Positions 16,325 to 43,600 of a DNA stretch of 64,000 bases are shown here, piece after piece. The notes below the pieces were generated by a model that was not told the origin of the DNA, ran no database searches, and saw only the letters and a list, made by a program, of their open reading frames with translations. The stretch covers positions 1-64,000 of IMG/VR virus record IMGVR_UViG_3300013125_000006; one strand, written 5' to 3'. Both the position numbers and the translations under genes were made by a program. Source of the stretch: a virus. Every line of letters begins with the position of its first letter. The stretch's first letter is position 1.

Positions 16325-19300
16325 ATGGAAATATCAAAACCTAATGATATATTAATTGCTACGATAAATAGTCCAGGATCTACTCCGTATGATTTTTTAT
16401 CAAATAATATAAGAGGTGATAATACATCATTTTTTACAAAAGATGAGTATAAACAAACAAGTTATATACAAGATGCATTTAAGGATGATAAAGGAAAATT
16501 TGATGAAATAGCTTTTGATAAAGCTTATGATTTGGCAAAAAATAATTTTTACTTAATAACTAATGCAGAATATTTAAAATCTCTCAATGAAATAGAATAT
16601 AGTCCATTTGATGTTACTAGACCAAAAGAGGCTAAAACTATTAAAGTAGGAGCTTCTTTTGAGAAGGAATATAATCCTTTTGAAGAGAAAAAAGGATGGA
16701 CTGGAATAGGCTCAGTAGATTTGAGTAATTTATCAATGAGAGAATTGGCTCAAAAAGGAAAAATATATGATCCAACAACAAAGACATGGTCAGAAGAATC
16801 AATTAATGATTTATCATTAGTAGATAAATTATTTGGAGATACTTATGTATATGCACAATATGATGAAGATGGACAACATTTAGATCTATCTTCTGGGATG
16901 ATTGTATCTCATAAAAAAGGAGACTGGAAAATAAATGAAGAAGGAAATCTATTTATTGAAAAATTAGCCGGAAGAGAAATATATGGAAAACAGGTTGTAA
17001 ATCCGATGGATGTTTTAACTACTGATGGATCTATAGTTAATAATTTTGATTTCCTAGATTCAGATGGAAGAGAAAAGTCAATTGGAGGAACAATATTAAA
17101 AACAGCTGTTGAAATAGCACCATTACTAATACCAGAAATTGGTATATTTAGAGGAGCTATGTCGATACCAGCTTTATACGGAGGATTAAGAGCTTCTATA
17201 GGACTAGCAACTGCTATGCCAACCTTATATAAATCAATGGAAGGATTGTTAGTAGGAGATAGTAATACTACTGTTACTCAAGGTGCAACACAGCTAGAGG
17301 GATGACTATCTAAGTATGCTCAATCTAGTGTGTCAGATGAAGGCTCAGAATCTTTATTTGGAGTTGAGCAAATGACACAAATGGTTTCTAGTATATTTTC
17401 ACAAATATATGAACAAAGAGCTGCTGCAAGTTTATCTAAACTAATATACAGAGGAGATAAATTAGTAGAGGGAGAAACAAAAAGACTTGCTAATGAAATA
17501 AATCAAAAATTAGTATCAGAAGCTTTAGAAGGTAAGATAAAATTTGAGGATATAGGAGCATTGTCTCAAGCTGCAATGGAAAAAATCCCAACATTACAAT
17601 CAGTAATAAAAAAACAAAGTGATTTATCAAAGGCTCTTTCTCTTGGTTATATGGCAATTGTATCAACCAGTGATATTTATGGTCAAGCAATAGAAGGTGG
17701 ATATGATAGAAGGACAGCTGGTTTTGCAGCTTTAGCAGCAGCAGCTGGACAATATGGTATAATGATGAATAACAGAATGGGAACATGGTTTTTAGATAAA
17801 ACTACAGGATATTCAGAAGAAACCAACAAAGCCCTTATGAGAAAATCAGTATTGCCATGATTAAAAGACATAGAAACAGGATTTAAATCTGTAAAAGTAA
17901 ATGTAACTGAAGGTAAAAAAGAACTTGGAAATGTATTTGGAAAAATAAAAAATTCAATGCAAGGCATATTTATGAATCCAGCAGTAGTTGGAGAAGCAAT
18001 GTGGAAAAATGCTTTAGTAGAAGGTGTCGAAGAGGTTACAGAACAAGTTGTACTAGATGCAACTAAAGGAATAGTAGATACTATGTCTTATCTTGGATTA
18101 ACAAAGAAACAAGGTTCGTTAGGTGGATGGAATAATATATTTAGTAAACAAGGCTTTGAAAATTACTTAGCTAACTTTGTTGGAGGTATTGTAGGTGGTG
18201 GATTATTTGAATTCCATAGATCGGTATTAGCTCCCTGGATTGATCCGTCTATTATGAATAAAGAAACACAAAAGTCTTTATATGAACTTATTGCTGCTGG
18301 ACATAAGGATGATATTATAGATATTATTAATTCAAAGAAATCAAGTTTTGGAAATAATTATGTTACTCCAGTATCTGAAAATGGAGAATTTAAAGAAGCT
18401 GGAAAAGATAATATATCTCAAGCCGATTTAATAGCTGAAAAAGCAATTGAAATGGTTAATATAATTGATGGAATATTAAATAGCCATGATTTGATAAAAG
18501 ACGATTCTGAAATAATAAATAAAGCAATTAGAGATAAAATAATTATAGATCAGTTAAATGCTACAAAGCCTGAAAATTCTACAATAGGATTAGAAGGATT
18601 AGTTCTAGAGGACTATAAGTCAAATATGGTAAAAATAGTAGAACTAGAATCACAAATGAAAAATTTAACTGATTCAGTAGAGGATACTAAAATAAAGTCA
18701 TTACTTAAATCAGAATTAAAGAATTATGTAGATAATGTAAATTTAATATTAGAAGGTAAAAAAGGAGTAGAATATTTAACTAAATCTTTATTATATTTGG
18801 TAAAAGACGTACATTCTCCATTTTTAAAAATAAGTAAGCCAGATTTTGTAAAAGAAACATATAATGTAAATTACTTCGATCTGCCAACATCAGGAATAGG
18901 ACTTACAAAAGAAAGAATGGATAAAGAATGAGATGAATATATTACATCAAAAGACCTTAAAAAGGATTTAAATACAATTTATAAAGTATATACTGGTTTA
19001 GAGCAGATTTTAAATGATCCGATAGCAAAATATTCTGAAACAGGTTATGATGTAGAAAGGTTAAAAACCATACAAAATATCTTTGATTTAAAAAAGACAA
19101 TAGACTTGTTTAATACAGAATCTTCTCCTGAACAAAAGACTTTAGCATTACAGAGGTTTATAAAAATAAATGAAGAATTACAAAATAGCAAGATAGTAGC
19201 TCCTTGGACTGTATATCATAATGATATGTATAATCAGTTAAATAATTTAGGACTTATAAAGAAAGCTACTATTAATGTTGATGAAAATGGAGAAGAAACA

Positions 19301-22300
19301 TATGAGTTAAGTAATTTTGATGATTCTGAATTAAATACAAATACTGAAGAGGGAATAACTGTAAAACAGAAATTACAATCTATTATAGAATCTTATTTTA
19401 AATTATTTAATATAAATCCTTTAAATGCTGAATCAGTAATAGAAAAATTAAATACTCAAATAACTTTAGAAAATAAAGAAGTACTAAATCAGATTTCAAA
19501 TATACAGAAAAAAGGAATATTATCAGAAGAAGATTTGAATAAAATAGAGGAATTAAAGTCTAAATTATATAACTTTAAAATAGGTAATATAAATGAAACT
19601 CCAAGAATTAAAGAATTATTAGAGATATCCAATTTAAAAATTACTAACAAATTAGGAGAGTTAGGAATAACCATGGATGAATATAATAAGTATTTATTCA
19701 ATAAGAGCAATGAGAATGTATTTTCTAAAACTTTTGAAGAATTATTATCCAAGTTTGAAACAAAAGATTGAACCGATTTAAACAAAGATCAATTACTTGA
19801 ATTTTTAACAGAATTAAATACTCTTGGAATAATTGACTTTTCTTTAACAGAGATGTCTTCAATTTCTTCAAATGCAAGAGAAATTATAGAAAATGAAGTG
19901 TCAAAACTTAATAACTCTGAATTATCTGAATCTGAACTTTTTGACATAAAAATTTTATTAGAACCATTTATAAATACAATTAAAAATATTATAGATTCTA
20001 ATAATTCAATGCTTAATAATGACTCCTCCAAATCTTTTGAGGAATTTATTAATGATGAAGTAAATTCAGTTAATGAACAGAAAGAAAAATTAAAGCCAGA
20101 AATATTTAAATTACATAATTATGCATTAGATTTATTAATAAAAGAATTGGAATCAGGCAATGCGGATAAAGAAGTTTTTCTGGAGACAGAAAAACTAATT
20201 AATGATGAAAAAATAGATTTAATAGCAAGAATATTTCCCAATATAAAAGATTTTGAATATTCAAAATTAGAGGAAACTATAGATTCTATAGTTCTTTTAC
20301 AAAGTAACTTACTAAATGAATTTGAAGACTTTGAAAATGACATAGGAACATATTCAGAGCTTAGTGAAATAAGAAAGTTAATTGAAGGAGAGGAAGAGGC
20401 TTTTAAGAATGATTCAAATTATAAAGGAATTTTTCCAAATATAGAAACATTAAACTTCATTAAAAATAATTATGATTTGGGATTATCTTTAGCATCACTA
20501 AATGTTGCCCTTAAAGATTCTATTAAATCACTTAGTGATAATAAAATTGTTATTGATAAAATAAATAAATTTAATGATTTAGTCTCCAAAGGAATATCTT
20601 TGAAATCAAATCCTTTATATGATTTTATTAGGAATTTTGTATTAACTTTGTCATCTGGTTCGGAAAGCAAAACTACTAAAATTTTTGATATACTTGAAAG
20701 AGAGGAAACTATGTTAAAATCTTTATCAAGTGTAACTAATTACTTGGCAGAGGATATTAAAACTCAGGATTTTTTACAGGCTATTGATTATTTAAAAATG
20801 ATTAAGGCAGTAATAAATGCCATGTCTACAACTAAAGTAAGTTTTGGTGAACCTTATGGATTTATTCAGAGTAGAATAAATTATGCAAATAAATATGATA
20901 AAGAGAATGATGTTTTAAAATTAAAAACAATTTCTTCTGATTTAGCATCATTAATGGCGCAAGATGTAGATATACTAATTACTAAACTTGGATTCTTAAA
21001 AGAATTATCAATGTTTAATAAGGGAAAAATGACACTTGAACAAGAAGAAATAAGATCAAGAGTCGAAAATCTCCTAGTTGATAATTGGAGAATATCAATG
21101 TCTAAAATAAATCCATCATTTTTACCACTTGAAAAAATAAAAGAAATATTAGCATCTACTGAAAGTAATTCAAAAAAATTAATGCAAATAGAAAATGTAG
21201 TATTTTTGCATAATGTAAACAACAAAGAAAAAGCTTTAGAGGAGTTTATAAAAAATCTTGATTTTGCAGATTCTGATGAATTTTCTCAGATGGATAGAAA
21301 TATATCTAAATTAGAACAGTGAGATTTGGCTGTTTATTATGCCACTACTCTTGCAATGAAATCTGAGGATTTTAGTATAAGATCTTTTATTACAGTAAAT
21401 AGTGAATTTAATAAAGCACCATTCTTTACACAAGAATTTGCAGCAAAAGTAGTAAAAGCAAGTACTATTAATCCCGAATTATTTGCTAAAATTTTAGAAT
21501 TAAAGAAAAATTCAGCAAAAACTACAACAGATTTTATTACAATAGTACTTGGAGGAGCTGGAACAGGAAAAACATCTGCAATATTTGGAATGGATATTGA
21601 CAATTTTAGACAAACAAATAATAATACAAATATATGAATTTCAGCTCCGGCTGATTTACAAAAAAATAATTTAGTAAAAACATTAGAAAATTCTGTTGGA
21701 AAAAATAAGCTTACAATAGAAGATTTTAATAAAGCTAAACTATTTGAAAAATTAGGCATTTCAGAAATAGCAGAAAAAATAATATCTGAAATTTCTCAAA
21801 TAGAAGATGATAAGGTAGTTAAGGAATATGTTAAACTTGAAAATGGTATTATTACTTTAACTGATAAAGTATTAAGTAATGAATGAATTACTGATATAGA
21901 GGAAAATTTAAAAAATCTACCTAATTTATTATTAATTGACGAAGTAACCCATTTCTCATCTTTTGAACTATATTTATTAAATGCTATATCTAAACATTCT
22001 TATTATAATAAGAATTTAGGTTTTATGAAAATAATTGCAGCTGGAGATCCGACTCAATTAGGATATCTTGCTAATGTTAATAAGAATTTCTATAGTTATA
22101 ATGTAGACGCAATAAATGCTATTTTTACCCCAAGATTATGGTCAAGTGTCAGATCTTCAAATGGACAAAAGAGACTAAATAATGATAGATATATAAGAAT
22201 AGTAAGAGAAATTGAAAAAATATATAAAAATAGTAAGGGATATTATGATAAAGCTGCAGAAGATTCTTTAAGATATTTAAGGAACAATGTCGAATTAAAT

Positions 22301-25300
22301 ACTCTTTCATATTTTGAGGCTCAAAATGATTTTGCTGGAGATAAGATAGTAACAGCGCTTAATAAAGAAATAGTAACTACAATAAAGAGTCAGATGGATA
22401 AAAATCCTGAATTTACTTTAGGAGTACTTACTGAAGATGGAAAGCTTCCAGAAGATTGGAATACTTTATTAAGTGAAGTTGGGTTAATAACACCAGAAGA
22501 CACATCAAGAATAAAAATATTTACCCCAAGTAATATACAGGGAAGTGAAGTAGATTATTTTATTTTTGATGCAAATCTAATTAAAAAATATGACAAAATA
22601 AGAGACCAATTAAAAGCATTTTATACCTTTATGTCGAGATCTAAAGTTGGGTCTTTTATAATTGACAGTAGTAATATACTAAGTAATTTAAATATATTCA
22701 ATGGAAAGAAAGATTTATTTCCTTCTAACTTTGAATTAATGACACCTGAGGTAATAAAAAATGCAAAAGAGAAAAGAATAGAAGATCTTAAAAAACTTCT
22801 TGGAGAAAATCTACAAGTATCAGATTATGATAATTTTAAGTGAGATATTGGAGAATTATCTGATCAAGAATTTACAGACTCAAGATTTGTAACTAGTGAT
22901 ATTCCAGAGCCATTGGATTTAAATGAAAATTCAGACGTATCTAAAGGAGAAAATTTAACACCAGAAGATTTAAAAAATGGCTTTAAAATATTAATGCATA
23001 GTTTTTACAATAATCCTAATGCAATAGTAGATACTAAGACTAAGACTATCAAAACTAATTCTAATGCTATAAATTCAGACTTAAATTTTATTTCTGATAT
23101 AGGCAGTGATAAATTTAATGGGGTGATTTCTAGTTGGATAAAATTAAAGAATTATGTATTAAATAACCTATCACAAAAACAAATTAGAAGTAATGATTTT
23201 GAAGAATTCTTTAAGGAGGCTTTTAAAGGAGATGTAGATTCATCTGAATTAATTTCAATAGAACCTATTTTAACTGCAACTAAGTATAATAAAAATATAA
23301 ATACACCATTTGCTAAACATGGATTTAAAGAAGACAAAACCTTAGGAAATGGTAAAACATTTATAACCTTATCTGCAAAATTAATATTAGGTCAAAAAGT
23401 ACATTATATTACATTAGCTGCTTTTGGTACAGAGGAACAAATACTTAAGAAAGCTACAGAATATAATGTTGACAATGTTAAAATTGAGGAAAAATTTAGA
23501 GAAATAGAAAAACTTCTTGAAGCTTCTCAAAATAATTTCTTAGAATTACCAATAGATGATATTGAAAATATAAAAATAATAACTAGTACAAGATTAGAAA
23601 AAGTATTTACTAACAGTAACAAAAGAGTTACTTATGACTTAAGTTCTCTAGAAGAAAATTTCCCAGGAATGAATATAAGTGAAATTAGATTTTTCCCAAG
23701 AAGTTTAGAAGAATTTAAAAAACTACTCAAAAAATATACTTTTGGGCCTGAGAGATTTTCAAATCAAGGATTATCAGACAGTGAGATAGAAAAGAAGATA
23801 AAAGTTCTTTTTGAGGGAAATAGAGACAAAAATGGGAAATTAATAAAAGATGCTGATGGTAAAACAAATTCAGGATTAAAAAATAAACCTTATATAGTAG
23901 TTTCAACTAAGGAAGATTTAGATGGAAACGAAAATGTAAACACAACACAAGCAGTTTTAATTCCAATAGGTTCAAATCAAAGAAATTTAGATACCTTAAC
24001 AAAAGAGGTAGAAGATTTACTAGAAGAGAGAAGATTGGATATGGAAAATGGGTATACTAATAACAAAAAAATAAGTCCAGAAATAAATGCAAAAACTGAA
24101 ATTTTATTAAATAGATCAGATATATTAAGTGTATTGATAAAATGGGGAAAAACAAAGTATGATAATGGAACATTATTAGATTTGTTAACTAAAGAAATAG
24201 AATTTTCATTGAGTGATACAGTAACAGGAAATAAAACTTCAGTATTTGATATCTTTTCTAGATTTAAAAATAGCAATGCAGAAACTTCTGTAGCCTCTAG
24301 GGAAAATATGAAAAAAGTTATAGACTTTGTAAAAGAAGCTCTGGCTAAAAATGAAAATGCAACAGTTGCAGAGATAAAAGAATCTGTAGTATCTAAAATG
24401 GATAAAATGACTGGATGGCATTGAACATTTTTCAATATTTTTGGATATGAAAAGATCATATCAGATTTAGAGGATGAGAAATTTTTAGAGCTAATGTTAA
24501 AAGGAGAAATTAATGACAAAGTTTTAGAAGTCTTTAATAATTCTAAAGGCCATGAAGAAATGAAAACTATCCTGAGTACTTTGGTACAAAGTTTAACTGG
24601 ATTTAAATTCTATTATTCAATCCCAATTAAGCCAGCAAAAATAGAAGGAGGACCATTTATTGTAAATCCTGCCATTGATGGCTCTAATGGATTTAAGAAA
24701 GAATTATTTGCTGATAAATTTTTCATAAATGTAGCCCCAGAAGGACCAAGATTGTTATTAAATATAAATACATTTTTAACGGCAGTTCCAATAGACCAAT
24801 CACAAGTTATTTCTACTCCGCCTGCTCCGCCTGCTTCAAAAACTACTAAAAAAGCGACTAAAAATAAAGTAGTTCCAGAAGTATTGGATCAAACTTTAGT
24901 CTCTGATGTTAAGTTAAATTCTTCTCTAAATGAAGATTTAAAATTAGCAAATTCTTTAGTAAAAGAATATGAGAAAATAGTAGGAGTAGTTAATCCTATG
25001 GATACTATGACTAGAATAGCAAATTTCTTAAATAAAAATTTCAAATGAGGAATTTCAGAAATAGTTAGTGATGGTGAAAATTTCAAATTTACTACTCCAA
25101 ATGGAGACTTTGAAATTAAGGCAGAAATTGTTGGAAATAAAATTAATAATTTATTAGATCAATTTGTAACTGCATATTTCGTAGGAAAGCATATTAATCC
25201 ATCTGAGAATTTTGAAGACTTTGTATATAAAATAGGAAGTCAAATAATATCAGAAGATATTAGAGAAAATCTAAGTTTGGTATTAAAATCAATTAGTAAA

Positions 25301-25537
25301 ATAGTTGGAGAAGAAAAACTTATTAAATTAATAGAAGATAATGTATCTAATTCAGCATATGATATGTTAGATGATGTATCTAAAATAGAAGTATTAATAA
25401 ATGGATTAGGATTATCTGTTTCAAAAAGTGGAATTTCAATCAAAGAGTTATGGGAATTTCTACAAATAAGTAAAACTGATCCTCAATTAAAAGCAATAAA
25501 AGAACAAATTAATAATTTGTTAGAAACCTGTAAATAA
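16325..25537 (+). CDS. Giant virion protein (~3070 aa) with SF1 helicase-like P-loop domain (TGA=Trp)
   Basis: Ten same-frame ORFs joined through 10 TGAs with no TAA/TAG. Motifs: IVLGGAGTGKT (I), IWISAP (Ia), LLIDEVT (II), AGDPTQ (III), IQGSEVD (V), FYTFMSRSK (VI). Confidence 0.8.
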
Positions 25538-25546
25538 ATATTATAA

Positions 25547-28500
25547 ATGAGTAAATGTGATGTAAAATATATAGGAAAAATAATTAGTCAAATAGACGAT
25601 TTCTTTCTTATAGAAGAAGACAAAAGCCTAGAAAATTTAGAATCATATGTCAAAGAAGGGATTCCTGGGTTACACCAGGACTTCTCTTTGGAGACCTATA
25701 TTAAAAATTCAAAAGACTTTAGTGATATGTTTTCTGGATTAGTTGAATTATATGATCTATCTTTAGACACCTATATAAAAGGAATAGATTCAAAATTTAT
25801 AAACACAAAAAGTAATGTATCAAGAAATTTTTCAACAGATAGAATAGTTGATTTATTCCATACCTTACCATTAGCAAAAGCAAGATTTGAAAACTTTTCA
25901 ATTAAAAAGATTTTAACTGCCTTTTTAATAGGACAAAAGTCATCAAATAAATTCGTATCTTCTAATTCAGAAATTTCTAAAAATTTTACTGCATTAAAGA
26001 ATGATTTGTTTTTAAAAATACAAGATTTTTTAAGTAGTAAGAATATTATTAAAAAATCTGAAATACAGGATTTATACAATAGTAATGGAGATATAATAGA
26101 CTATAATCATTATAAAAAAATAATGAATCTTATAGATGATTATTTCTTCTCGGATGAATCAAAGTTAATTAAGACATATTCAAATAAAAAAGGTATTCCA
26201 AACTTATCCATGGATACAGTAGAAAATTCAGATTTATTTGATTCCTACAATGCTAGTATATTATTATCTAATTTTGACTCTGTATTACAGGAATATTTTA
26301 GTGGAATAGTGGATATAAATTATAACTTATTTAATAATCTAAGAAGTAATTTAGAATCAGGAGACAAATATTCTAAGAAAATAGAAGGAATAAAAACAGA
26401 GTATTGGAGAAAAGATACTCATGAGACTGAAAGCAGTGAAGAGGGAGAAAGTAAACTTATAAAGCTACTTGTTTCCACAATTCCAATATATAATAAGAAA
26501 GGTATTGATAGCGGAGTAACTATGGAAATGAAAGATCTATATCTTATAGCTGCAATGATTTCTGATTTTGAAATTGTAAACGGAAATAGATTAAAAAATA
26601 AAGAAGGAAGCAATTTTATATATTTCAATGAATCTCCTAAAAAAGCATTGTTACAGTATTTGGATAATGTGGATAAAGCTTTTAATGGTTTAGATGGGGA
26701 TACTTTATATAAAGAACATTTTCAATATAATTATGAGTTTATACTATCACTAAAAAAGTTTATAGAATCAGAAGAATTAAATATATTATCTAAAGAAGAT
26801 AATTCTAAGGAATCTATTATAGAAATGATAGCCCAAGTTATAAATAATAATTTTGGAGCATCCTATCTCACATATAATTCTAATGGTAAATATACTATTA
26901 GAGAAATGTATAAACAAAATTTTAATACAATTCATTTGCAAGATTCTGTATTTGAGAAAATCTTAAGATCTAAAAATGAAAAATTATATGATGTAGAGAA
27001 GAATAAAGATGAAATAGATGAACTTTTTAAAAATATAAATGATGGAACAAATTTACTGCTAATTCCAAAAGAAGCTAAGATTGCAATAAATAGTTATATT
27101 GGAAAAAGGACAGGAATATATTTATCTTATCTAGGATTTGACGATTTAATAGTAGATATTAGAAAACATCAAGAGAACCTTACAGTAACAGGATTCAAAA
27201 ATATGCTTACAAATTTTAGTAATGCTGTCATTGAAGATAGGGCAAGAATAAAAAAAGCAGTAGAAAATAAACAAATAACTGATACTAGTAAAGATATAAA
27301 TTCTGGGGATTACATACAATCTCTAAATAATAATTCTTTATTTAAAGGACATATAAATGCATTTCTAATAAATTATCCAGTAAAAGCAGTTATGAATATT
27401 AATTTATTAAGTGGTGAGAAATTACCAACTTTTAAACTGGCTAATCTTACTCAAAAAGATACAGAAATATTTGAATTACAGAGAGATTTTGAAAAATCTG
27501 GAACTTCGTTATTTAAGAGTCTTCTAATAAAAGATACTCCAGCTATATTAGGAACAGGAACTAAATTAGAGCTGATAAATGGAGAAGACAATAAATCTGC
27601 ATCAAAATTTAATATTCAAGAAAATTTTACATCAGACTTTCAATTGGATTTCTTAAAAAATATAGAGAGTAATGGAAACTTTTCAATAATGCTAGGGAAT
27701 TACTCTGATAAAAATACTATATTGACAAAAATAATCAATGGAAGTTTTAAAATTCAAGGTAATTCAAAGACTATTTTACAATATTCTCAAAAAGAATTAT
27801 TAAATATTGTAAAATTACAAGGAGGAAGTTTTTATAAAAATACGTTAGTAAATGTATTAGCTGATTTAAATTTCTTATTAGGAAGAACTGATAAAAGAGT
27901 AGTAGAAACCAATGTTAAGAAAATAGAATCTGATATAAAAGAATTGAATATAATATTAGAAAATACTGATGTAAGAACATTATCAAAAAAAGCATCAGAT
28001 AATGGTATTAAAATATTAGAAGAACTACATTTTTCAAAATATGAAGGAAAATTTAAATTAAATCAGTTACTTGTTGACAACTATAGAATATTTAATGATG
28101 ATGATTTATTTAATGATTTTGTAAAATTACAAGAAAATGAAGTAATAAGGAAATTTAAAAAATATAATAAATCATCAGAAATTAAATTTCTTAAAGATAT
28201 TGACTTAAAAAAAATATCTGAGAAATTAGGAATAGAAGAAAAAGAATTTCCAAAGAAGGAAACAAATGGAAAGGAAAATATAGATTATACACAAATAGAA
28301 TCTTCTGGAGAACTTAATCCATTACTTAAAAAATGGTTATGAACAAATGCTTTATTTAGAAATGAATATTTATTTGTAACAGGAAAAGGTGAATATATGC
28401 ATCCTCATAAAGTCAAGAGTTTATCTTTTAGAGGAAATTCTAATGGATTATTATCAAAAAATGATAAAGAAAAAACCGCATATTGGAAAAATTTCCAAGA

Positions 28501-31500
28501 AGAAATGAGTGGAAGATTATCTTCTATGGCTAAACGTAATGTAATTTATACAGCAACAATAGAATCACCAGTAAGAAATAGCAAGTTAGGAGTTCCTGAT
28601 GATATAAATATGGCTGTAATAGATGATCACAGAGATGAATTATTTAATATAACTGGAAATACAAAAAATCAGGAAGTACATGATGGTTCTTCTTATATAA
28701 ATTATATATACAGTTTAATGCTCGATAATTCTTTTCCAGGAAAAGGATATAATGGAACAAAAAAACAATTTGCAACATTTGTTACTGAGTCTGGAGTAAC
28801 CATAAAGAAAGACGCAGAAAGTGTAATAACAAATAGAAAAATACTTGATTCAAGAAATTCAAAGATATCTTTTTTAGGAAAGCAAAAACAAATGCTTGGA
28901 ATTGATGTTCAATTACCAGCTTCTTTTAAATTTAACGAATCTTTTAAAAATGAATTCTTCTTTAATAAATTAGGAGTTATATATAGAATAGAAACTATAG
29001 ATATTACTAAAAATAACTATGCAATGGTTGTATCAAGGAAAAATGGAAATAAATGGACATTAGAACAGGAGCCAATTTCTGGAAAATTTAATAATTTATA
29101 TCAATTATGGGAATTATTTGGAGCACAATATTCAACTGATATAGACAATAATTTTAATGAGGGTTCAAATGAACTATTGTATAGAATAGTAACTACTCAG
29201 AATGGGGAAGGAAAATATCCATTAAAAAATGCAATGATTCATGTATTATCAAATATCTCAGCTGTAAAAGCAGGAGCTGCAAATGTTAATGATAGAAAAC
29301 TATGAACATCAGATGAACCATTAGCCTATACATCATTTAAAAATAGATTTATGGGACCTCAGCTTGATGCTTCTCATGATGCTAATGATTCAAGAATTAA
29401 AGAAATTACTCAGGTAATATCTTCCTTAGCTCAAAATTCTGATACAGCACATTTAGCACAAGAAGCATATGAGGATATAGCAACTGTAATAAAGAATGCA
29501 GCTAAACCATATGTAAAATATATGAAATTTGGCAAGGATATAAATAAATCTGATTTATATAAATATTTATCAGAGAAATTTGTAAAAACAATAGAAAATT
29601 CTAAAGGAGATAATATAGCAAAAATACTTGTTCAATCTTTTTCTCAAGATACTATAATACCTTTTAGTAACCAAAATTTCTTTATTCCTTTTGTAAGAGA
29701 TGTAATAACAAGAATGAATAATGAGTTTATTTCAAGGTACTATTCTGGAATAGGGGCTGTTTTAATTCCATCACATGGTATTATACAAGTATATGATATT
29801 CCACAGGCAGATGGTACAGTAAAAATAATGACTCAAGCAGATATAACTAAGGAAGCTTTAAGTGCAGGTATATTTGAAGGAGTAGCTTCAAATGATGAAC
29901 TTATAGAAGCCCACATAAGAAAAATAGCTCCACCACAAGACATAACTTGGGGCGAAATAATGCTTGGAGATACTGTAGAAGTACCAAAAGAACCAAGAGC
30001 TGAAGCCAGAGAATTATTAAAAAATAATTTGGGTTTATTACAATCATTAAAAGATCAATATGGAGACAATGAATTATATATAAATCAATTAGTTTCTAGA
30101 TATTTAGATTGAAATTTTGGAAATAATAAAATACCGAAAGAAATAGATTTTAATAATTTTAACATTTTCTTAGCAGAAGATGCTTTATCAAATGATACGA
30201 GTATTGAAATGCAGGAAGTAACCTTGAGTAATCCTGATATATATTATTATTATAAAGAATTACATAGTGGAAATGAACCTGTAAGAAAATTAACTAGACC
30301 AAGAGACTTAAAACCAAGTGAAATAACTTTTACATGAAATGGAAGAAAAAATCTATTTGATTTGGATTCTATAAGGCTTAGATATAAGTTCGAGAAGATG
30401 TATAAAAATAAAATGCTTAATGAATCTGACAAAGAGTTTATTCATTTAAGTAATTTTTATACTAAAGTTTCAAATGGCAGAAATCTTATTGAGGACTTTA
30501 AAACTGATAGCACTCAAGCAAGTAATATATTAATTAAGTACCTAAATCTATGAACAAAAAGAAATTTAAACTTATTAGAACTTAATAGGGTAATGAAATC
30601 TGTAAATACTTCCACAATGGATGAAATTTTCGGGGAAGATAATTTAGTAAAATTATTTAGGGAAGTTAAAGATAGTTACATGAATATAACAGAAGAAATA
30701 TCTGATTATGATTTTAAAGCTGCAGAATTAATACTAGGTAATTTATATAATTCTAAATTCAACACTGATAGTAATAGTTCAATATATGAAATAAAATCTA
30801 AAGGAAGTGAATACTTTAAAGAATCTTTAGAAAAATTATTTGAAGAGGATTCATTTAAAGCAGATATGAAGTTAATAGTAGAAGGAGTAGATCATCCAAT
30901 ATATATAAAATATACTGATAAACTTCCAGGAAATGATTATAAATTAAATATAAAACTAGAAAGACCTCTTGATAATGGGGATATTACTAGAAAATTTGTT
31001 AGACTTAATGAAAAGGGAGAAAAAATATATGTAATTCCAGACCATAATTATGTAAGAGCTATAGAGCAAGACGGAAGAGAAGTTATTTATGTAAAAGCTG
31101 CCTCATCAGTTAAATCTAAAGAAGGTAAAATTCTAAATATTGAAGAACCCTTTAAAGAAAATTTAGCTAATCTTATAAATTCTTTTGAAGGATCTATAAG
31201 AACTATAGTTCCATTAATGGGTTCTGACAGTGATATAGTTGATAAACTTAAATTAAATAAAGTTACTTTAAATGAATTTTCAAAATTTTCTAATTATGTT
31301 CCAATAGATAAAAATAATTTAGATACTGAATGATTTGAATTACATAAAAAACATATAATAGATAAATTGAGTAAAAAAATGTATGCTTCTTGAGAAAAAT
31401 CTCATGAATTTGTAGTTGCACGTATCCCTGCTCAATCTATGCAATCATTTATGCAAATGCAAAATATTGCTTATATGCAAGGAAATTCAAATGATGCATT

Positions 31501-34500
31501 TGTATCAGTTTGGCAAATATGATTACAAGGCAGTGACTTTAGATAATATTGGAGTCACTATAATAAATCTCGTTAACTGCGGGGAACTCCTGAGAGTTTT
31601 TACTACAAACTTAGACTAGTAATAGATCTAAGGGCTATAATTAACTATTATAGATATTGTAAAAAGGTAAAAAATTGGACAATCCGCATCCAAGCGTCCT
31701 AGATAAAATTTATAAAAATATAGACTTTTAAATGGATAAAATTTTATAAATTTGTATTTAGGATGAAGGTTCATCGACTATCCCGGAGGGGAGTAGAAAC
31801 TTTCATTTAGTATTAATTATTAAATGAATTCATTATGTTTAAAAGAAAAATTACTAAAAAGTTAAATGTAGAACAAAAGCAATTACTTATTGCTTTATTA
31901 TTAGGAGATGGAACTATTTCATCTAATTATGTTTTTAAACTTTCTCATGGAGAGGATCAATTAGAATATTTAAATTGGAAGATACTACTTCTAGATAGTT
32001 TAAATATAAAAAATAATGGTTTAAAAACATATATATCAAATTCAGGATATAATACTGGTAAAAAAGTTTTATATTCGCAAATGTCTTTAAATGCTACTAT
32101 AAAAGCATTAAGAAGATCTGTTTATTTACCCAAAAAGACTTTATCAAGAAATCTTTTAAATTGGTTAAATACTCAGGGACTTGCAATTTGGTATATGGAT
32201 GATGGACATATTAATGTTAATACTTCTAAGCAAAGGACTACTATCCAACATACAATAAAGTTTGCAACTTGTGTAAAGCTAGAAATAGCAACTATAATTA
32301 TTCAATATTTTTTAGAAAAATGGGATATAAAATTTAGACTTTTAAATGAAGGGAAAAATACATATTCTATTGCTTCTAGTACGGAAGCTGATGCTGAAAA
32401 ATTTTGTAAAATTGTAAAACCTTACATACAACAAGTTCCTAGTTTATTATATAAAATAAGAAAAGATTTAACTAAAGAAGAATTTATTCAAAAACAAAAT
32501 GAAGGTTTCGAAATGCGAGACATTATATATTAAATATAATGAAGATATAGTCAGTCTTTGTATGAAAGTATAAAGGTTAAACGGATATTGATAAAGCTTA
32601 TATGCTTGGATCTGGATTTAGTTCTAATGGACAATTTGAAGCTATATCTAAGATAAGTAATTATTCTAGTATAGATCAATTAAATGTGCTGGAAAAATTT
32701 CCAATACCAACCAATAAGAAAATAGAATTATCTACAGATGGTCTAGATTTAACAAACGAAACCAAAGAATTTTTTACTTATAGTAAAGAAGAGTCATTAA
32801 CAGATGTCATAGATAATATTGAAGAAACAATTGCAATGAATGAATTATCTGTAAAGCAATTAAATTTACTAAATATTATAATAAGAAAAGTTAATGATTA
32901 TGTAAAAAATACTGGAAATAGAAATGTTTTTACAACTGATAATAATAAGGATGCAAAAATATTAATAAATTTAATAAATAAGCATAATCTAGATAATGGG
33001 TATGTAAAAAATAAACACTCTGTAAAAAATTCCATTGTATCAAAAATAAAACAAATCATATCTTCTCCAAGTAATCAAATTTTAGCAAATATTCCAGTAG
33101 ATGTTGAAGTTTGGCAAAATGCTGCTAATGCAGCAATAGCCTCAAAAAACATAGAAAAAGAATTTTTGTCTTCATATGATATGTTTAGTTATTATAAACA
33201 ACAAAGAGACGCATCAGTAGGTAAGGATGATGTTGGTATAGCTGCTAATGGACTTAAAGTACTGTTTGCATTAACTAGTTATTATAACAATTACTTCAAT
33301 AATTTTTCTTCAAATAATTCAGAGGATATAAGAAGAAGTAATAAAACATTTATAAAAGAATTTAAATTCTCAAATGGAAAAACTTACAAAATTGGTGCTA
33401 TTAGTGATGTAGGTATGGATGATTCTCAAAAAGCTGCAATAGAAAAAGCTATTGGTAATTTTGATGCATTTAGAAATGATGCAGCAATTTCTTTATCTAG
33501 TTTTACATCTGCAGCAACTGATAATGCTAAAGAATTACTTATGGCAAAAATTAATGCAACAGTAGAATTAGCTTCAATGCATATCTATTTACTTACATTA
33601 GGATTTACTCCTGGTCAAGTTTCTGAAATAATGACATCTGAAATAATAGATGATGTAATCAGTTCATTAGAAAGTAACTCTTTACTAGGTGAAAATAGTA
33701 GTATTATACCAGTTATATTTAAGAACTTAGAAGGGACATATAAAAACAATGAATCAAAATCAAATGACTTAGCAGTACTAAAAGATATATATGATGGAGC
33801 ACAGGAAATTAAATTCTTAGCAAAAATCTTAGGAGCCAATCAAAAGAGATCTGCAAATGTAGAAAAAATAAATGACTTTTTAACATCTTTAGAAACTACT
33901 CTATATGCTAGAGAAAATAATGTGTTTGGCAATGATTTAAGACTTCTTAATGAGTGAAATAAATATAAAGATTCTCCAGATAAAGGAAAAGCTAAGGAAG
34001 TAAGAGAAGTATTTAAGGGATTGGTTGATAAAATTATGCAACATAATAAAGCATTAAATTCAAAACTGGATAGAAAATATGTAGAAGATTTACTTGAAAA
34101 AGCTAGCAATGTATCAGTAAGTTATGTAGATGAACAGGGGAAAAGACATTCTAAGTATGTAAGTATTATAGGAGGAAATTTTGATTTTAGATATTTTGTA
34201 GATGGATCAAAAGAGAATGATGAATACAGAAAATTAACAAAACAATATTATAATTTAATAAAAAATACTTATAATATATTTGATGTAATTGATGAAGTCC
34301 CACATTTTAAAGAAATGATAAATGGAATAATGCTTTCTCATAATATCTTAATGAATACTTCTATTAAATATGCAACTGCATTTACAGTAGTAAAAGATGT
34401 ATTAAGGGAAAATTCTCATAGAGTAGTATTTAGTGGTAAGGAGGATAATCCTAACCCAAGTATAAAAAATCAAATGGGAAATCCAGGATTATATCCACGT

Positions 34501-35538: not shown

Positions 35539-35541
35539 ATA

Positions 35542-38500
35542 ATGGGAAAGTGTAAGTATATTTTAGAATTACCTGGAGGGGGAGTCATAACACTCCCCTC
35601 AGGTTTTGAAACTTTGGAAAAAAGTAAAACAATAGATAAATTATATGATAAATATTTTTCATCTAATAATGATGAAGAACAGCAGGAAGTGTTAAGAGAA
35701 TTATCTGGGTCAATAAAAGCTGAAACTAAATATAAAATAACCCCTGAAAAAATAAAAACTATTATATTAAAAAATAAAGACAAAGAAACCTTCTATAAAG
35801 AAATAAATAATATAATAGAAAATTCAGGTTCTTTTGATTCTCTTGGATCTGTATTATATGATTATTTATCAGAGGATAAAGGAAAGAACTATAATAAAAG
35901 GTTATCAGAACTAAAGCAGAAATTACAGAAACCTAGAAAATTAAGTTACTTTCAAAATATAGGAGCTTCTGGAACATTAGGTTTAACAAATTTAGTACAA
36001 GAAAGATATAGAGTAAATTCCAAAAATGAAGAAAATAAAATATTTGGATTTTACAATGATACTACTAAAAATCTATTAACTTTCTTAAAAATTCTTGCTG
36101 ACACCTATAAAAATAAAAATAGAGAGAATACTATATATGGAATACAGGGACAATTTCTAGTAAATGCATGGTCCATGGATGATATAGTATTATATGAACT
36201 TAACAATGATTTGTCTCTATTCTTAGGACTGTTTAAAAGAGAAGCATTAAAAGTAGATAAATCAAAACTTATGCCAATCTTAAAAGAAATAAATAAGATT
36301 ATAAAGTTTAAAAAGTATGGAAAAATAGACATTAATGAAGAAGATTTTGATATAAATAAATTTTTTATAGGGGAATTGGAAAATAATAAAGTGCAGCAGT
36401 CACAATTAGAAAAATTATTGGCATTAAGTACTGATAAAGATATATCAAAACAAATTGATCAAATACTTAATTTAGTTGCATTAACAATAAATCCAGAAAG
36501 TTTGGGATTAATAAAATCAATTAAAAATTTATTCTGGCAATTATTTCCAGAGACATATGGAAAGAACAATATATTAAAAGCTGTTGAAACTGAGAAATTT
36601 ATAAGTAAAGAATTAGAAATAGAAAAGGTATACAAGAATGATTTACTTCCATTTGATAGAATGAGTTCTCAAGTCAGAGATCATAACTATTCAATAATAC
36701 AAACAATAGAGGGAGACTTATATGAGAATAGTGTAAAAAATATTATACCATATCAGGATATAGTAAAGTTTCCTAGTGGTGACAAGGGTGTATTTGCATT
36801 AGTAACTCATATTTTTAAAAGAGGAGAAAATGTAATAGTCTATGGTAAATTTAGAAATCAATATGGGGAAATAGAAAGAATTGATAATGTTTTTAAACCG
36901 GGAGAACTTCAATATAGAAAACTGGAAGATCCAATATCACCAATGATAGAGGATGAAATAGTATTACCAAATGATGGGATGATGATAATATCAAAAGCTG
37001 AAATGAATCCAAAGATAGTAAAAGAAATAATATCTAAAGGAGATTTGGTAAATGGAAATCTAGTAGTAGGAATATATCCAAATGTAATATATGTGCAGAC
37101 TCCAGATAAAAAAATAAAATCAATTGGGTATGGAAAAATAAAATCAATGAAAGCTCTCAAAGCTTCCCAACTAAATAATGATAAAAAAATAGAACCAAAT
37201 AAATTTGTACAAATAAATGATGGAACTCAGTTAACAAAAGGAGATTATTTTTTATTTGAGTTAGATGGAAAAAAATTCTATAAGAAAATACTATTGGCGG
37301 ATGATACATATGTATACTCAATTGTAAAAGGTACAAAAGGAGCCGCGATAATGCAGACTGAAAAGAAGAATTTAATAGGCTTAAAGGATGCAGAAGGTAA
37401 ACTTACTATTGAGGATATATTAAGATTAAAAGAGGAAGTTAAAAATATTACTAGAAGTACAGCAACAATGTCTTCTTTCAGCAATAAAGAGCAAGCTAGA
37501 CCAGGAGATTTTTTCTTTTTTATGGATGGAAATACAAAAAAATATGGGGAAGTCTTGGAAGATAATAAAGTAATAACATATAATGAAGATATTACTGATA
37601 AAATAATTCTAAACTTAGATAAATTACCAGAAGTATTATTTTTTACTGATAGAGATATTTCTACAGATTATTTTTTATTTACTATAAGAAGTAACCAATT
37701 TGAAATTTCATTTAAAGAATATCCTGATAATGTAGCACTTGAAAAACAAGTTATATATGTAATACCAAAAAATTCAGATTTAAATAGTATTAAATTATTA
37801 ACAGGAGGATATGCAAATATAGGAAGTTACATAGAACCAGAATATTTTAACCCAGAAAAACATATAGATATTACAGATCTAATGAAAGAAAAATTAGGGC
37901 TGGATAAAAATCAAAATATGTGAGTTACTAAAAAATCTTCGGAAAGTAATAAATTCAAAAGAAATTTAGAATCTTTAATGGAAATAAAATATTTTGATTC
38001 TCTAGATTTACAAACTAAAAAAGAACTAGGAGTATTATTTCCTGGAGTATATTTTTCTTTATATAAAGCTAATGAAATAGATTCAAAAATTTATAGAGTA
38101 ACTTCAGTTAATGAAGACAAAGTAATTGCTCATTTTAATAGTATAAGTCCAACTGGAAAAATAATAACAGTTGAAAAAGAATTTAATATTGATGATCTTT
38201 TAAATAGGGGAAATGATAAAAATGCAATAGTAGGAAGTATAGCAAATTTATACATACAAGAAGGAAATAGAAAAATAGGAGCAGTATTAAAAGAAGTAAA
38301 TAAAGTGTCTGAAGAGGCAAAATTGGAATCTAGACCAGCTACTAATAAAGCAATAAATAAACTAATTAAAAGTTTATCAAAAATATCTAAGAAATTAGAT
38401 ATGGAAGTTTCTTTAGTAGAGGAAAAAGAAGGAAATTTTAAATCAAACCAAAAAGCAAAAATAGAGACAAATAAAAAGGGAGAAACAAGAATATTAATAA

Positions 38501-38946
38501 ATAAAAATATAGGACAAACAGAAGATGTTGTGCACGAATTTTTACACTTATTTTTAACTCCTTTAAGATATAAACATCCAGAAATATATCATTCTCTTAT
38601 TCAAACTGTGATTAAAAATCCAGATATGAACATAACTGATGCAGAAGAAATATTTGTTTCATATGTAGCATCAAAACTAGAAAGTCAGGAAGATTTTTTA
38701 GAAAGTTTCCAGGACATGGAATCTTTTGTAAATGGATTAAAAGTGGCATTAGGAGAAGTAAATGATGATTATATAGTAAGCTTTGAAGAAGATCCTATAG
38801 AATTATTAAAAACCCCATTAATGGACCTATTTCAAATAGATAGGAATGATATAAGCAGTGAATTAATGAATTTAGGAATGGTTACAACTGAGCCAATGAT
38901 GAGAGAATGAATGAAAAATAATAATATAATCTTAAATTGTAGTTAA
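35542..38946 (+). CDS. Large virion protein with zincin-like metallopeptidase motif, 1134 aa (TGA=Trp)
   Basis: ORFs 35542 and 37978 are joined, with readthrough to TAA at 38944-38946. EDVVHEFLHLF (HExxH) with a downstream EE. Confidence 0.75.
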
Positions 38947-38947
38947 A

Positions 38948-41900
38948 ATGGGACAATGTTTTTATTATAAAAATGGCGAAAAAGTAGAAAATATTCAGGA
39001 TATAATAAAAAGTTTTTTCAAAGACAACTTTCAATTAAAAAATGCCGCAATATTTAGTAGTACAGAAATTCAGTCAAGTACAATAGATGCTATAAAGAAA
39101 ATAAAAGACACAAATTCATTTTCTAATAACGAAGAATTATCTGTTACTGATTTAATTACAAAACAAAATGTTGGTCTTTTTAATTTGTTAGGAATATCCA
39201 CAAAAGGAGGAAGATTGGCCCCAGAATATATTGAAGAAAATAGAATTTACAGTTATGTGAAAGAAAAATTAGATTCTATAAAAGATGATGTTGATATAAC
39301 AGGATTAGAATATACTCAAAATAAATTAGAAACTTTAAAGAATACCCCTGAGTTTTCAGGAGTTTCAGAAAATAAATTAGTATACTTATTAAGTCAAATA
39401 GAATCTGATATTAAATATGAAGAGGAAACTAAGAACTTCGGAATATTATTGCATGATGTAATATCTTCAAAAATAAGAGATACTGGCTATAAGAATAAGG
39501 TGTTAAAATATATAAAGGATAATAAAGGGAATAGCATATTAGGAGACTATTCAGATGAAGAATGAGTAAATAAAATTGATGAAATTTCTGATTCAATAGT
39601 AGAGAAAATAAAAAACATAGAAAAATCTGGGGCTTTTATAACTGAAATTTTTCTATCAAGTCTACCAAATACTCCTATAAATACATATTCAAAAGGATTA
39701 AAGGGTAAAATAGACTTAATAGCTGTAGACTCAAATGGAGATCCTCATATCTTTGAAATAAAAGTATCCAAAACAAATTACGATGATTGGGACGCAGCAA
39801 AAACATTAACATTAGATTGGCAGCTTGCTTTATATAGACAATTGCTTGGACAACACGTAAATATAAACAAAACAATGCTATACGTTATTCCTGTTTGACT
39901 AAGTGTAAAAGGTAATCCAAATGGAATTATTGTTCAAAATATTGTAAATAGAAAGTCAATAAGAAATAGTGGATTGAACGATACTGGAAGCATAACAGTA
40001 GCAGCTAATAAAATAATTCCAAGGGCAGTAATAGCAGATTATGATCCAGAAAGAATGGATATTTTAACAGATCAATTACATAAATTAATCCCAAATTATG
40101 AAGTTAAGACTGGGATAGAGGATTATGATGTAGATTCAATAATTGAAGCAGCAAGGAAAAGGTATGACAAAGAAAAAGTTTGAAGAAAATGGAACAATTT
40201 TGATGATGCACCTGGACTCAAAAAAGGTTATATAGAGGCTGCAACAGAAGAGGAATTTAGAGATCAAATTGAAAAATATGTAGCACATGTAAAGACTCAA
40301 GTAAATAGAAATGTATCTATATTAAAAGATGCTATTATATCAGCTATAAAAACTAATAATCCTATTCAAACAAGTTCTTATAATTCTGAGAAAGACATCA
40401 CGACTAATCACCTACTCAAAGAATATTTAAACGAAGAGTGGTCTGTAATTGATAGTATTCCTGAGGCATTAGCTATGGGATTAATAGTATTGAAAAATAA
40501 TAAGAATGGAAACATAAATTTAATTAGTTTATCAGCAAATCAATTTTATGCAACTGCATTAGAAAATGATTTACCAAATGTGAATTATGGAGATTTAGAG
40601 TTTTTAAAATCATTTTTATTTATAAATACTTTTAAAGATATGCTGATGCCACTTGGTAGTGGAAAATTAGCTCAAATAATAATATATAATCCATTAAATA
40701 ATCAAGTATATTCTAGGAATACCTATAATAAATTTGATGAATTTGTAGATAGAATGTATACTATAGGGTTTAGGGAGGAATTAAAACTAGATAAAGAAAA
40801 GCACATAGCTGGAATAACAGATATTGCTTTGTATAATCTAGATGCAAATTTAAGAAAATTTGATGGCTCTAATAAAGATGAAATAAATGAAATTTTTGCA
40901 AAGTTTAGAGAAACTAGTTTAGATGAAATAGATTTGGAACAGTTGATTGATATACAAAGAACTTTGTATGAAAAATTTCCAGACTATAAATTAAAAACTA
41001 TAAATCCAACTTTAAACTTTGATGATCCAAAAGAAGTTTTATTGGCATTGTTACAAGTAGCAATAGTATCAAAATCTCAAATGGATTTAACAGGGGATTT
41101 TCAAAGACTTTCAAAGTTCAGCTTTGGATTTTCAGATTTTAAAAGTTTAATAGCTGCATTATATACTGATAATTTAGAGAAATATAATAGAGAAGGAAAA
41201 AGAATACAAGGAATTGTTCAAGGGCTTATATGAACAACTCCAGATTGAGTTGCTTCAAAAGACTTAAAAAACATAAATAAAATAATGTCCACTGCGAATC
41301 AGCATATAGGAGAATCTATGGTAGCAATATCAGAAATTATATATGGGCATACAAAAAAATATTATAAAGAGATAGGATTTAAAGAATTTAACCGAGGAGT
41401 TATCGGAGAAACACAAAGTAAATACAAAGATTTGTGGCTTCAAAAAGACGGAAAAGTATCAAATGAATTCAAAACCAAGAATCCATATGTAGTTGATAAT
41501 GAAAATATACTTACTGATGCTCAACGAGAATATTTAAAAAATATATTGTTTATAATAAATGTATTTCAATATCACATACCAGATTCTGAGGCAAAAAAAT
41601 TAGACCCTAATAAATTAGAGTCTTTAATGGAAAATGCCACACTTAAAGAAGCTATTGAAAGTGGTGAGTATTTTGAAATGCCTGTAATAAGGAGGGAAGA
41701 AATTTCTAGAGTCGGCGGGATTGTAGAATCTCCTGGAAAGTTATGGCAAGATAAAATAAAGCCATTTATGGGAGAGATAAACGATTTAGTAGATCCAAGA
41801 GAACTTCTTCCAGATCAATTGGATATTATTGAAAAACAAAAGATGGGATTTTATGAAATGTATGATGTATATGGTAGGCAAGATAGTAACTATATTGCAA

Positions 41901-43552
41901 AAGCAATTGAAAAACATACAGTAAATTATTTTGAATGGAACTTAGATACAATTGCACATAGAGTTGCATTTAATAAAATCAGAAAATTTACTATGGATAA
42001 AAAACTTCCTATTATAAATGCTTACATATGATGGATTAAATTTTTAGCTGGAAAAGAAAATGAAGATATATCAAATCAATTGGAGTATATCTCAAATCAG
42101 ATGAGTCTGTCTATATATGATGAACCAATAATTGATGATGAATTTAAAGATTATGCAAAAGTAACAGCAACTTTGAAAAGATTATCTACTGCAATGTTAT
42201 TAGCCTTTAGACCTGCGTTATTTGTAAAGGAAATGACCATAGGATTATTTAAAGGAATGTCTTTAGCAGCTACTCAAATATATGGAAAAGATCAATTTAC
42301 AGTGCAGGATTTAAGTTCAGCATATGCAAAACTATTAGCAATAGACCATAAATTCTCTGAAGAATTTAATTTAATTGATAGACTAAATCACTATTACAGA
42401 TTTGCGAATATGGATGTTAATACAATATCTAAAAAATTGCAAACTGATAGACATGGACTATTCAGAGGAGTTGGAAGATATATGTATATGTGTAATACAA
42501 TTCCAGATTATTATAATAGGTTATCTATATTTTTAGCTAAAATGATTCATGATGGAAGTTATGAAGCACATAATTTAATTGATGGAAAATTTATATATGA
42601 TGCTACTAAAGATAAGAGATTTGAATATTATCTTGCTAATAGAAAAAACCATATGAAGAATGGAAAATATATTGCTGCTCAAAGTGATAAAAAATACAAT
42701 GAGCAAAGGCAGAGATATCTAATTCTCCAAGATCAATTAAATAAGGAATATAGCGGAGAAAGAGTGTTTACAGAATATGATGAAGAATTAGTTCCAAAAG
42801 CATATTCAGAAATAGAAAGAACAAGTTTAAAATCTTTCTCTGATATGGCTTATGGATATTATGATAAAGATGCTCAATCACAAGCAAATAATACTTGGTG
42901 AGGAATGACATGATTACAGTTCATGCAATTCTGGCCAGGTAAAATGAAAATGTGATTTGCTACTCCATCAGAAGAAAGTCCAATGGGAAAAATTCAACAC
43001 AAATATATAGTAGATAAAGATGGTACTAAAATATACCAATACCATAAAACAATAGAATCAGAAAATGGAAATATATATACAGAAGAAACTGAGGAAGATA
43101 CTGGTGATCCAGTATTAGAATGGGTGGGAACTCCTTATGAAGGATTATATTATTCTGTCGTAGGAACTTTAAAAGATATATTTACATTAAATTTTTCACA
43201 CATAAAGAATTCAGAAGAAAGAAATAGAAGAGCTTTAATGGCACTTGCTGATGCTGGATTAATATTTATGTTATTTAAATTTGTTCAAATACTACTTGAT
43301 TCTTTTATAGAAGAAAATGGAACAGATGGAATATCTGGAAGTTTAGCTTCAATGTCTAGCTCCATAAATAAGAAGGTAACAAATGAATATAATGTATATC
43401 AGAGTACACTTGGAGGAGTTAGTTCAGAGCCTGTATTTTTATCTTGAGGAAAGAAAACAGCTAGTGATGTATGATCTGCATTGAATGGGGATAAAGATAT
43501 CACTGAGGTAATGACTAGAAATGTCGGTGCTGCAGAAGTATTCAAATGGTAA
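38948..43552 (+). CDS. Large virion protein with PD-(D/E)xK (RecB-like) nuclease domain, 1534 aa (TGA=Trp)
   Basis: Six same-frame ORFs joined through 11 TGAs. GILLHD...TE...LKGKIDLIAVD...IFEIKVS...QLALY lies largely in the stretch the ORF track missed (39566-39973). Confidence 0.8.
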
Positions 43553-43555: not shown

Positions 43556-43600
43556 AAAAAAAAATAGCCCTACTGCGCAATTGCGGTAGGGCTATTTTTA
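43556..43600. terminator. Bidirectional intrinsic terminator between the convergent late and early blocks
   Basis: AAAAATAGCCCTACTGC-GCAATT-GCGGTAGGGCTATTTTT inverted repeat flanked by A and T tracts. Confidence 0.9.

Follow-up and report, generated by a model that had tools for sequence, protein, structure and literature searches.

Four consecutive genes in a 64,000-nt stretch of viral DNA (IMG/VR record IMGVR_UViG_3300013125_000006, positions 1 to 64,000, one strand; the window) encode giant proteins that are almost free of cysteine (Cys), and six of their seven cysteines are located at protein ends that face a neighbor in the series. The genes, at 16325-43552, include one for an RNA polymerase (RNAP) and form the block of cargo (ejected) proteins in a large crAss-like phage in which TGA is recoded. 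The feature is real and highly conserved. In the literature searched it is not described for crassviruses, and it has one published structural precedent elsewhere. Judging from sequence comparisons and from analogy with that precedent, it is probable that each C-terminal Cys is disulfide-bonded in the particle to the N-terminal Cys of the next protein, which would give a train running from a first protein (protein A) through the RNAP and a zincin-motif protein to a nuclease. In the human gut, crassviruses are the most abundant viruses, and the organization and delivery of their roughly 5 MDa of cargo proteins is the question on which this rule bears. A rule that can be read from the sequence and that predicts touching ends makes cargo organization directly testable in cultured phages.

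Cysteines at the ends of four giant proteins

The four proteins, comprising 8,720 residues in total, were translated with genetic code 4 (TGA = Trp). The features of the block, with their open reading frames (ORFs), are as follows.

16325..25537, plus strand: protein A, code-4 ORF of 3070 aa, first of the series
25547..31540, plus strand: RNAP exon 1, residues 1-1998, ending ..QGSDF
31541..32583, plus strand: putative group I-like intron of 1043 nt, splitting DF/DID
31835-32533, plus strand: LAGLIDADG homing endonuclease ORF in the RNAP insert, 232 aa
32584..35538, plus strand: RNAP exon 2, 984 aa, beginning DIDKAY
35542..38946, plus strand: zincin-motif (HExxH) protein, code-4 ORF of 1134 aa
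38948..43552, plus strand: PD-(D/E)XK nuclease protein, code-4 ORF of 1534 aa, last of the series
43565..43600, no strand assigned: G+C-rich hairpin followed by a T run, read from the sequence, directly after the nuclease gene

The sole Cys of protein A is residue 3069 of 3070 (TGT at 25529-25531, ..ETCK*), and there is none at its N-terminus. The RNAP has only Cys4 (25556-25558, MSKC) and its last residue (35533-35535, ..KFEC*). Likewise, the zincin protein has only Cys4 (35551-35553, MGKC) and Cys1133 (38938-38940, ..LNCS*). The nuclease protein has Cys4 (38957-38959, MGQC) and an internal Cys1182 (42491-42493), and its C-end, ..EVFKW*, is without Cys. The junction-facing ends thus hold 6 of the 7 cysteines and the two outer ends hold none. 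An earlier note on this DNA had given the same cysteine counts and positions, had claimed that only the outer ends of the series lack a terminal Cys and had placed the four genes 9, 3 and 1 nt apart; the code-4 translations and the ORF coordinates agree with it exactly.

Cysteine makes up 7 of 8,720 residues (0.08%) in the giants, compared with 69 of 4,408 (1.57%) in the minus-strand early proteins of the window. The chance of finding at least 6 of 7 cysteines in the 24 junction-facing terminal positions is 3e-15 (binomial). All six junction cysteines are encoded by TGT and lie within ~30 nt of the tightly spaced gene boundaries.

Conservation within the protein families

In each of the A, zincin and nuclease families, the terminal cysteines are among the very few invariant columns. 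For the zincin protein, we sampled 51 near-full-length representatives of distinct 50%-identity clusters from 149 matches in a library of 1.84 billion proteins. A Cys was present within the first 8 residues in 49/51, within the last 8 residues in 49/51 and at both ends in 47/51. The four representatives without both terminal cysteines were truncated matches. Internal cysteines numbered 12 in 60,460 residues. An alignment of 47 homologues, at 20-51% identity, has only 14 invariant columns, including C4 and C1133; the HExxH motif and downstream Glu residues (H998, E999, H1002, E1035 and E1036) are also invariant in the 47 sequences.

The homologues of protein A have a Cys 0-2 residues from the C-end in 10 out of 10 cases and an N-terminal Cys in none of the 10. 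Among 32 nuclease homologues, 31 have a Cys at residue 3-4, none has a C-terminal Cys and 19 have no other Cys. The family logos read C-x-[YF]-x-[IL] at the N-ends and [IL]-x-[LI]-x-C at the C-ends. Four loci of close relatives, found by profile-based scans (L001 and L017-L019; zincin proteins 24-41% identical, all TGA-recoded) repeat the whole cysteine pattern. Their A orthologues end ..KKC* or ..WTC*, and the RNAP C-end ..[IV]KFEC* is common to L017, L018 and L019. No match came from a single-protein scan of IMG/VR or from a tblastn search of 50,697 phage records with the zincin protein.

Domain assignments were few. Protein A matched Pfam AAA_19, an SF1-helicase-like P-loop family (26.7 bits, cut-off 25.1), and the nuclease protein matched PDDEXK_1 at residues 156-313 (27.2 bits, cut-off 22), an annotation already assigned to many homologues of the nuclease family. 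These were the only Pfam matches of the four giants, and PHROGs gave none. Profile searches of the PDB with the zincin and nuclease proteins gave no meaningful match; the matches to G-alpha and chorismate mutase, with E of 0.005 or more, were rejected as noise.

In an AlphaFold2 (AF2) model of the zincin protein (predicted local distance difference test score 81), Cys4 starts an N-terminal beta-hairpin, and the last 8 residues form a low-confidence free tail. A Foldseek search with the whole model returned KOW/Tudor-like barrel repeats as top matches, with no zincin structure among them. Residues ~400-900 (window 36700-38250) appear in the model as a run of small beta-barrels, for which Foldseek matched Spt5 KOW and Tudor repeats with probability up to 0.9 and low template-modeling scores. 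Spt5/NusG-type KOW domains bind RNA polymerases, and therefore this region of the model may be a contact region for the RNAP.

The rule in other crAss-like genomes

We compared 19 crAss-like genomes, 17 of them tabulated together and the other two being cr10_1 and cr108_1. The junction-cysteine rule is obeyed in all 19, and in each of them Cys is absent from the N-terminus of the first protein and from the C-terminus of the last. The N-terminal cysteines are at residues 3-6, and the C-terminal ones are 0-3 residues from the end, except in phiCrAss001 gp50 (8 residues) and cr10_1 (10 residues). The earlier expectation that orthologues would conserve the terminal cysteines and leave the outer ends free was therefore borne out, both here and in the family alignments.

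In phi14:2 (GenBank numbering), gp078 ends in Cys, gp077 (the RNAP with a solved structure) has cysteines at residues 3 and 2179 of its 2180, and gp076 has Cys3. These four are the only cysteines in the 5,398 residues of the cargo block, and all are terminal. In phiCrAss001, the sole Cys of gp47 is residue 2339 of 2341, the cysteines of gp50 are Cys5, an internal one and Cys2404 of 2412, and the sole Cys of gp49 is residue 5. DAC15 (gp078-gp076-gp077) has the same layout as phiCrAss001. In both of these phages the gene for the first protein is on the other strand from those for the second and third, yet this protein still has a single Cys, at its C-end. This excludes a signal in DNA or translation at the gene junctions as the reason for the pattern.

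Gene fusions bear on which ends belong together. In the Intestiviridae (p-crAssphage, crAss002, cr11_1 and cr271_1), the RNAP is fused to the downstream subunit and there is no Cys pair at the fusion. The pair between A and the RNAP is kept, with ..C-x* at the end of the upstream protein and MSC at the start of the fused giant. Proteins A and RNAP are fused in Suoliviridae (cr50_1, cr1_1, cr10_1, cr52_1, cr118_1, cr109_1 and cr7_1), in Steigviridae cr108_1 and in the Flavobacterium phage Fpv1. These fusions lack both the C-end Cys of A and the N-end Cys of the RNAP, and retain the Cys pair at the other junction, between the C-end of the giant and the N-end of the last protein. Each type of fusion thus removes exactly one head-to-tail partner pair, which favors pairing of the C-end of one protein with the N-end of the next. 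This head-to-tail logic is strongly supported by the sequences compared. The earlier note had proposed that each C-terminal Cys bonds to Cys4 of the following protein; the pairing logic of that proposal is backed by the invariance of the cysteines, the free outer ends and the losses at fusions, and the proposal as a whole is partly supported.

The order of domains along the series varies. The HExxH motif is in the first protein in phiCrAss001 and p-crAssphage, in the last in phi14:2 and in a protein of its own in the window, and region 216-318 of the window nuclease matches phiCrAss001 gp47 1749-1866. The junction rule holds regardless of domain order. It also helps with annotation. The start of crAss002 gp33 (L006:15088-15190) is probably placed 32 codons too far upstream, the likely true start being an internal M-S-C, and cr10_1 (L009:24747-28357) has an unannotated gene downstream of the giant protein, starting MKIIC.

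Explanations of the pattern

The structural precedent comes from cyanopodophage A4 (Anabaena phage A-4L). In its pre-ejectosome, determined by cryo-electron microscopy (cryo-EM), gp26 receives the C-terminal helix of gp27, and Cys1715 of gp27 and Cys5 of gp26 form a disulfide (PMC12002296). According to the A-4L genome, gp27 (1717 aa) has its sole Cys at residue 1715 (..NPCQF*) and gp26 (1114 aa) has its sole Cys at residue 5 (MSKHC). The two proteins are like those of the window in being consecutive and otherwise Cys-free, with the upstream Cys 2 residues from the end and the downstream Cys at residue 5, and MSKHC closely resembles MSKC in the window and MSKRC in phiCrAss001. The A4-type signature (a Cys near the upstream C-end, a Cys at residue 3-6 downstream and few cysteines otherwise) was found at 3 of the 3 window junctions. 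As the identical signature is a disulfide in A4 by cryo-EM, a disulfide is, by analogy, the likeliest chemistry for the terminal Cys pairs of crassviruses.

In the disulfide-linked train that we favor, the giants have been purged of cysteine, like the ejected proteins of other podophages, with one Cys kept at each neighbor-facing end. Keeping only paired terminal cysteines fits the Cys-purging logic of ejected proteins. Intermolecular disulfides would then join 8,720 residues into a covalent train that is nearly linear. With its links at the extreme ends, the train would have the topology of a single chain, equivalent to the fused giants of other crassviruses and to the single-chain N4 polymerase, and storage in fixed proportions and end-to-end passage through a narrow channel would therefore be possible. 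The reducing cytoplasm of the host would then separate the parts. In a plausible geometry, suggested by the AF2 model, the C-terminal tail would be added as an extra strand to the N-terminal hairpin of the next protein and clasped there by the disulfide. In crassviruses, the bond, the ordered passage through the tail and the reductive release are all inferred. If true, the scheme would explain the purge of other cysteines from the cargo proteins, the location of the remaining ones at the very ends, where they keep the topology linear for a narrow channel, and the free evolutionary fusion and fission of cargo modules.

A wider version of the proposal covers crAss-like phages in general. Two to four giant cargo proteins, including the virion RNAP, would be joined after translation by terminal disulfides into one chain of 5,400-8,700 residues. 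The link would be interchangeable with gene fusion, would set the ratio and order of the proteins in packaging and ejection, and would be undone by the reducing cytoplasm of the host, freeing active enzymes. We put this version forward tentatively, and regard it as slightly likelier to fail than to hold in full.

Several observations weigh against the disulfide-linked train. For gut crassviruses, which are assembled in a reducing cytoplasm and inhabit an anaerobic lumen of low redox potential, oxidation would be hard to place in space or time. No thioredoxin-family gene was found in the 77-kb record from which the window was taken. BLASTP of A4 gp26 and gp27 against crass proteins showed no similarity, and the A4 precedent is therefore an analogy and not a homology. 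The cargo proteins of the cr7_1 and cr271_1 lineages hold a dozen internal cysteines, and the C-terminal Cys of phiCrAss001 and cr10_1 is as far as 8-10 residues from the end. Finally, small cargo proteins of the Intestiviridae bear an extra C-terminal Cys with no obvious partner.

These small proteins are p-crAssphage gp47 and gp48, crAss002 gp30 and cr11_1 gp62, with the ends ..QSCR*, ..YRCGGHRR*, ..FRCGGKKKIA* and ..CGGGKKVRKRKR*. A tail of C-G-G followed by basic residues recurs among them, and no N-terminal Cys partner was seen.

The pattern of terminal cysteines can be read in other ways. The ends might dock head to tail with the cysteines unoxidised, through a shared metal ion or through a non-covalent clasp in which a beta-strand is added to a hairpin. 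The strand-like contexts conserved around the cysteines ([IL]-x-[LI]-x-C and C-x-[YF]-x-[IL]) would suit such a clasp, as would the AF2 model with Cys4 at the start of the hairpin and a free C-terminal tail, and both the gut lumen and the cytoplasm are reducing. However, a metal ion would be poorly held by two thiols alone, with no other conserved Cys, His or Asp in the vicinity, the solved A4 example is a disulfide, and a purge of all other cysteines is what would be expected if wrong disulfides had to be avoided. We consider unoxidised docking unlikely, and still the strongest of the competing explanations. It is less likely again that the terminal cysteines bond elsewhere, to the portal, to inner capsid or tail proteins, to the small cargo proteins or to a second copy of the same protein. 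The partnerless cysteines of the small Intestiviridae proteins are in keeping with such bonds, and the tail hub and ring proteins of phiCrAss001 do form disulfides. Nevertheless, bonding elsewhere leaves unexplained why the N-end of the first protein and the C-end of the last are Cys-free, and why exactly two facing cysteines are lost together at each type of fusion.

The fusions also bear on a scheme in which the RNAP and the zincin protein are each closed by an intramolecular N-to-C disulfide and the single cysteines of the first and last proteins pair together. The number of cysteines is even and would balance in this way too, but every fusion would then leave two widowed cysteines, whereas the observed losses are the exact head-to-tail partners, and A4 shows pairing of a C-end with the next N-end. 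We regard this scheme as very improbable. Chance, base composition or a nucleotide signal at the junctions, such as translational coupling or read-through, might be suspected from the six TGT codons so close to tight gene boundaries. This suspicion is already refuted by the comparative sequence data: the binomial probability in the window is ~3e-15, the cysteines are invariant down to 20% identity, and the pattern is kept where the first gene is on the other strand, far from its partner.

Three further readings were rejected. The cysteines are at the wrong ends for split inteins or ligation, and no domain resembling an intein was seen. An N-terminal metal-binding motif does not agree with a Cys whose position varies from residue 3 to 6, without fixed spacing or a His. 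CaaX-like lipidation was dismissed, as the C-terminal Cys is 0 to 3 residues from the end, with no constant offset.

The RNA polymerase and its intron-like insert

The RNAP was listed as two ORF pieces, 25547-31546 and 32602-35538, with the endonuclease ORF between them. An uninterrupted RNAP of 2958 aa in L019 aligns end to end with both pieces (49% identical), and by this alignment the break falls within the catalytic motif (..QGSDF / DIDKAY..). This gives exons at 25547-31540 and 32584-35538 and a joined product of 2982 aa. The L019 orthologue reads GSDFDIDKAY, and GSDFDIDK is identical in the polymerases of phi14:2, phiCrAss001 and DAC15. The joined exons of this giant late protein thus contain the catalytic DFDxD motif of the Crassvirales-type two-barrel virion RNAP. 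An hhalign comparison of the RNAPs of this lineage with those of phi14:2, phiCrAss001 and DAC15 gave 95.7% probability over only 81 columns with three sequences on each side, and BLASTP of exon 2 against phiCrAss001 gp50 gave E = 1e-6. A sequence search of the PDB with the RNAP profile returned no meaningful match.

The last nucleotide of the 5′ exon is T and that of the insert is G, and the L019 orthologue is without an insert. A match to the Rfam model Intron_gpI is weak (32540-32572, 18 bits compared with a gathering threshold of 50) and covers only the 3′ end of the model. The endonuclease ORF belongs to PHROG 11023 (E = 8e-13); it has Cys146 and Cys191 and is not part of the Cys series. 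No Cys pair flanks the break at the insert, which fits two exons that form one spliced RNAP, and the terminal-Cys rule, as read from the sequence, argues that the two exons make one protein.

Genetic code and neighboring genes

The source record is 77 kb long, with a completeness estimate of 43%. Relatives of the window phage are on contigs of 142-178 kb, and the window phage is therefore a large crAss-like phage. The plus-strand genes of 1-43552 are interrupted by in-frame TGA under translation table 11 and whole under table 4. The convergent minus-strand early genes (43598-62731) are nearly all intact under table 11. In-frame TGA reaches 11 per gene in the late plus-strand genes and is nearly absent from the early ones. 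No tRNA genes were found within the window. The hairpin and T run at 43565..43600 are likely, from their sequence, to mark the end of the late operon, facing the convergent minus-strand genes.

Directly upstream of protein A, the genes at 10143-14402 (1419 aa) and 14402-16309 (635 aa) encode proteins with zero Cys and no family match, which are probably the counterparts of the channel-forming cargo proteins C1 and C2. Further upstream is a muzzle-like structural protein (phrog_15100) with six cysteines. We infer that the giants of the window are packed in the particle and ejected, from their position after the muzzle-like protein and from the virion proteomics of their counterparts in phiCrAss001 and phi14:2. 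At the start of the window, a 5′-open ORF (1-903) ends ..KGKC* and has three other cysteines, and the next ORF has no N-terminal Cys. Its terminal Cys is probably unrelated to the pattern of the cargo block.

Comparison with known systems

The earlier note knew of nothing similar. For crassviruses and for chains of several links this held, and for a single link it did not, as one link has been published for A4, which is not a crassvirus. Only two proteins are joined in A4, and the window series has three junctions; unlike the window series, the A4 link involves no RNA polymerase. The A4 bond has been treated as a local stabilizer of a folded complex, with no suggestion that it follows a conserved rule or substitutes for gene fusion (PMC12002296). 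By full-text search, in which subscription papers are poorly covered, we found no papers mentioning the crassvirus cysteines described here. The word cysteine is absent from the structural atlas of phiCrAss001 (PMC10172136), and 'Cys' was not found in the preprint on the phi14:2 RNAP.

The N4 virion RNAP is one chain of ~3,500 residues, and the core proteins of T7 associate non-covalently. The ejected proteins of N4-like phages and of T7 (gp14, gp15 and gp16) are Cys-depleted like those of the window, but have no conserved terminal cysteines. In T7, gp15 and the part of gp16 examined have no Cys. The depletion in N4-like phages (Schitoviridae) has been explained by passage through the periplasm (PMC11445570).

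Another close system is the set of cargo proteins of cultured crassviruses (phiCrAss001 gp47-gp50-gp49, phi14:2 gp078-gp077-gp076 and DAC15), which have the same domains: an RNAP with DFDxD, HExxH and PD-(D/E)XK. In phiCrAss001, gp47, gp49 and gp50 are virion proteins by mass spectrometry, the particles have intermolecular disulfides between tail hub and ring proteins, and the RNA-polymerase proteins inside the capsid could not be resolved in the structure (PMC10172136). According to the record annotation, the cargo proteins of phi14:2 were also detected in virions by mass spectrometry. The window series differs in having one protein and one junction more than that of these three phages (four and three, compared with three and two), in using TGA as Trp and in having an intron-like insert in its RNAP gene. 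In the window, the zincin and nuclease domains each form a protein of their own, encoded after the RNAP; in phiCrAss001 both are part of gp47. It has been noted in the preprint on the phi14:2 RNAP (Drobysheva) that the three cargo proteins are sometimes fused. The fused giants of Suoliviridae, Intestiviridae and Fpv1 (4,300-5,400 aa) consist of the same modules as the window series, joined by a peptide bond and without a Cys pair at the junction.

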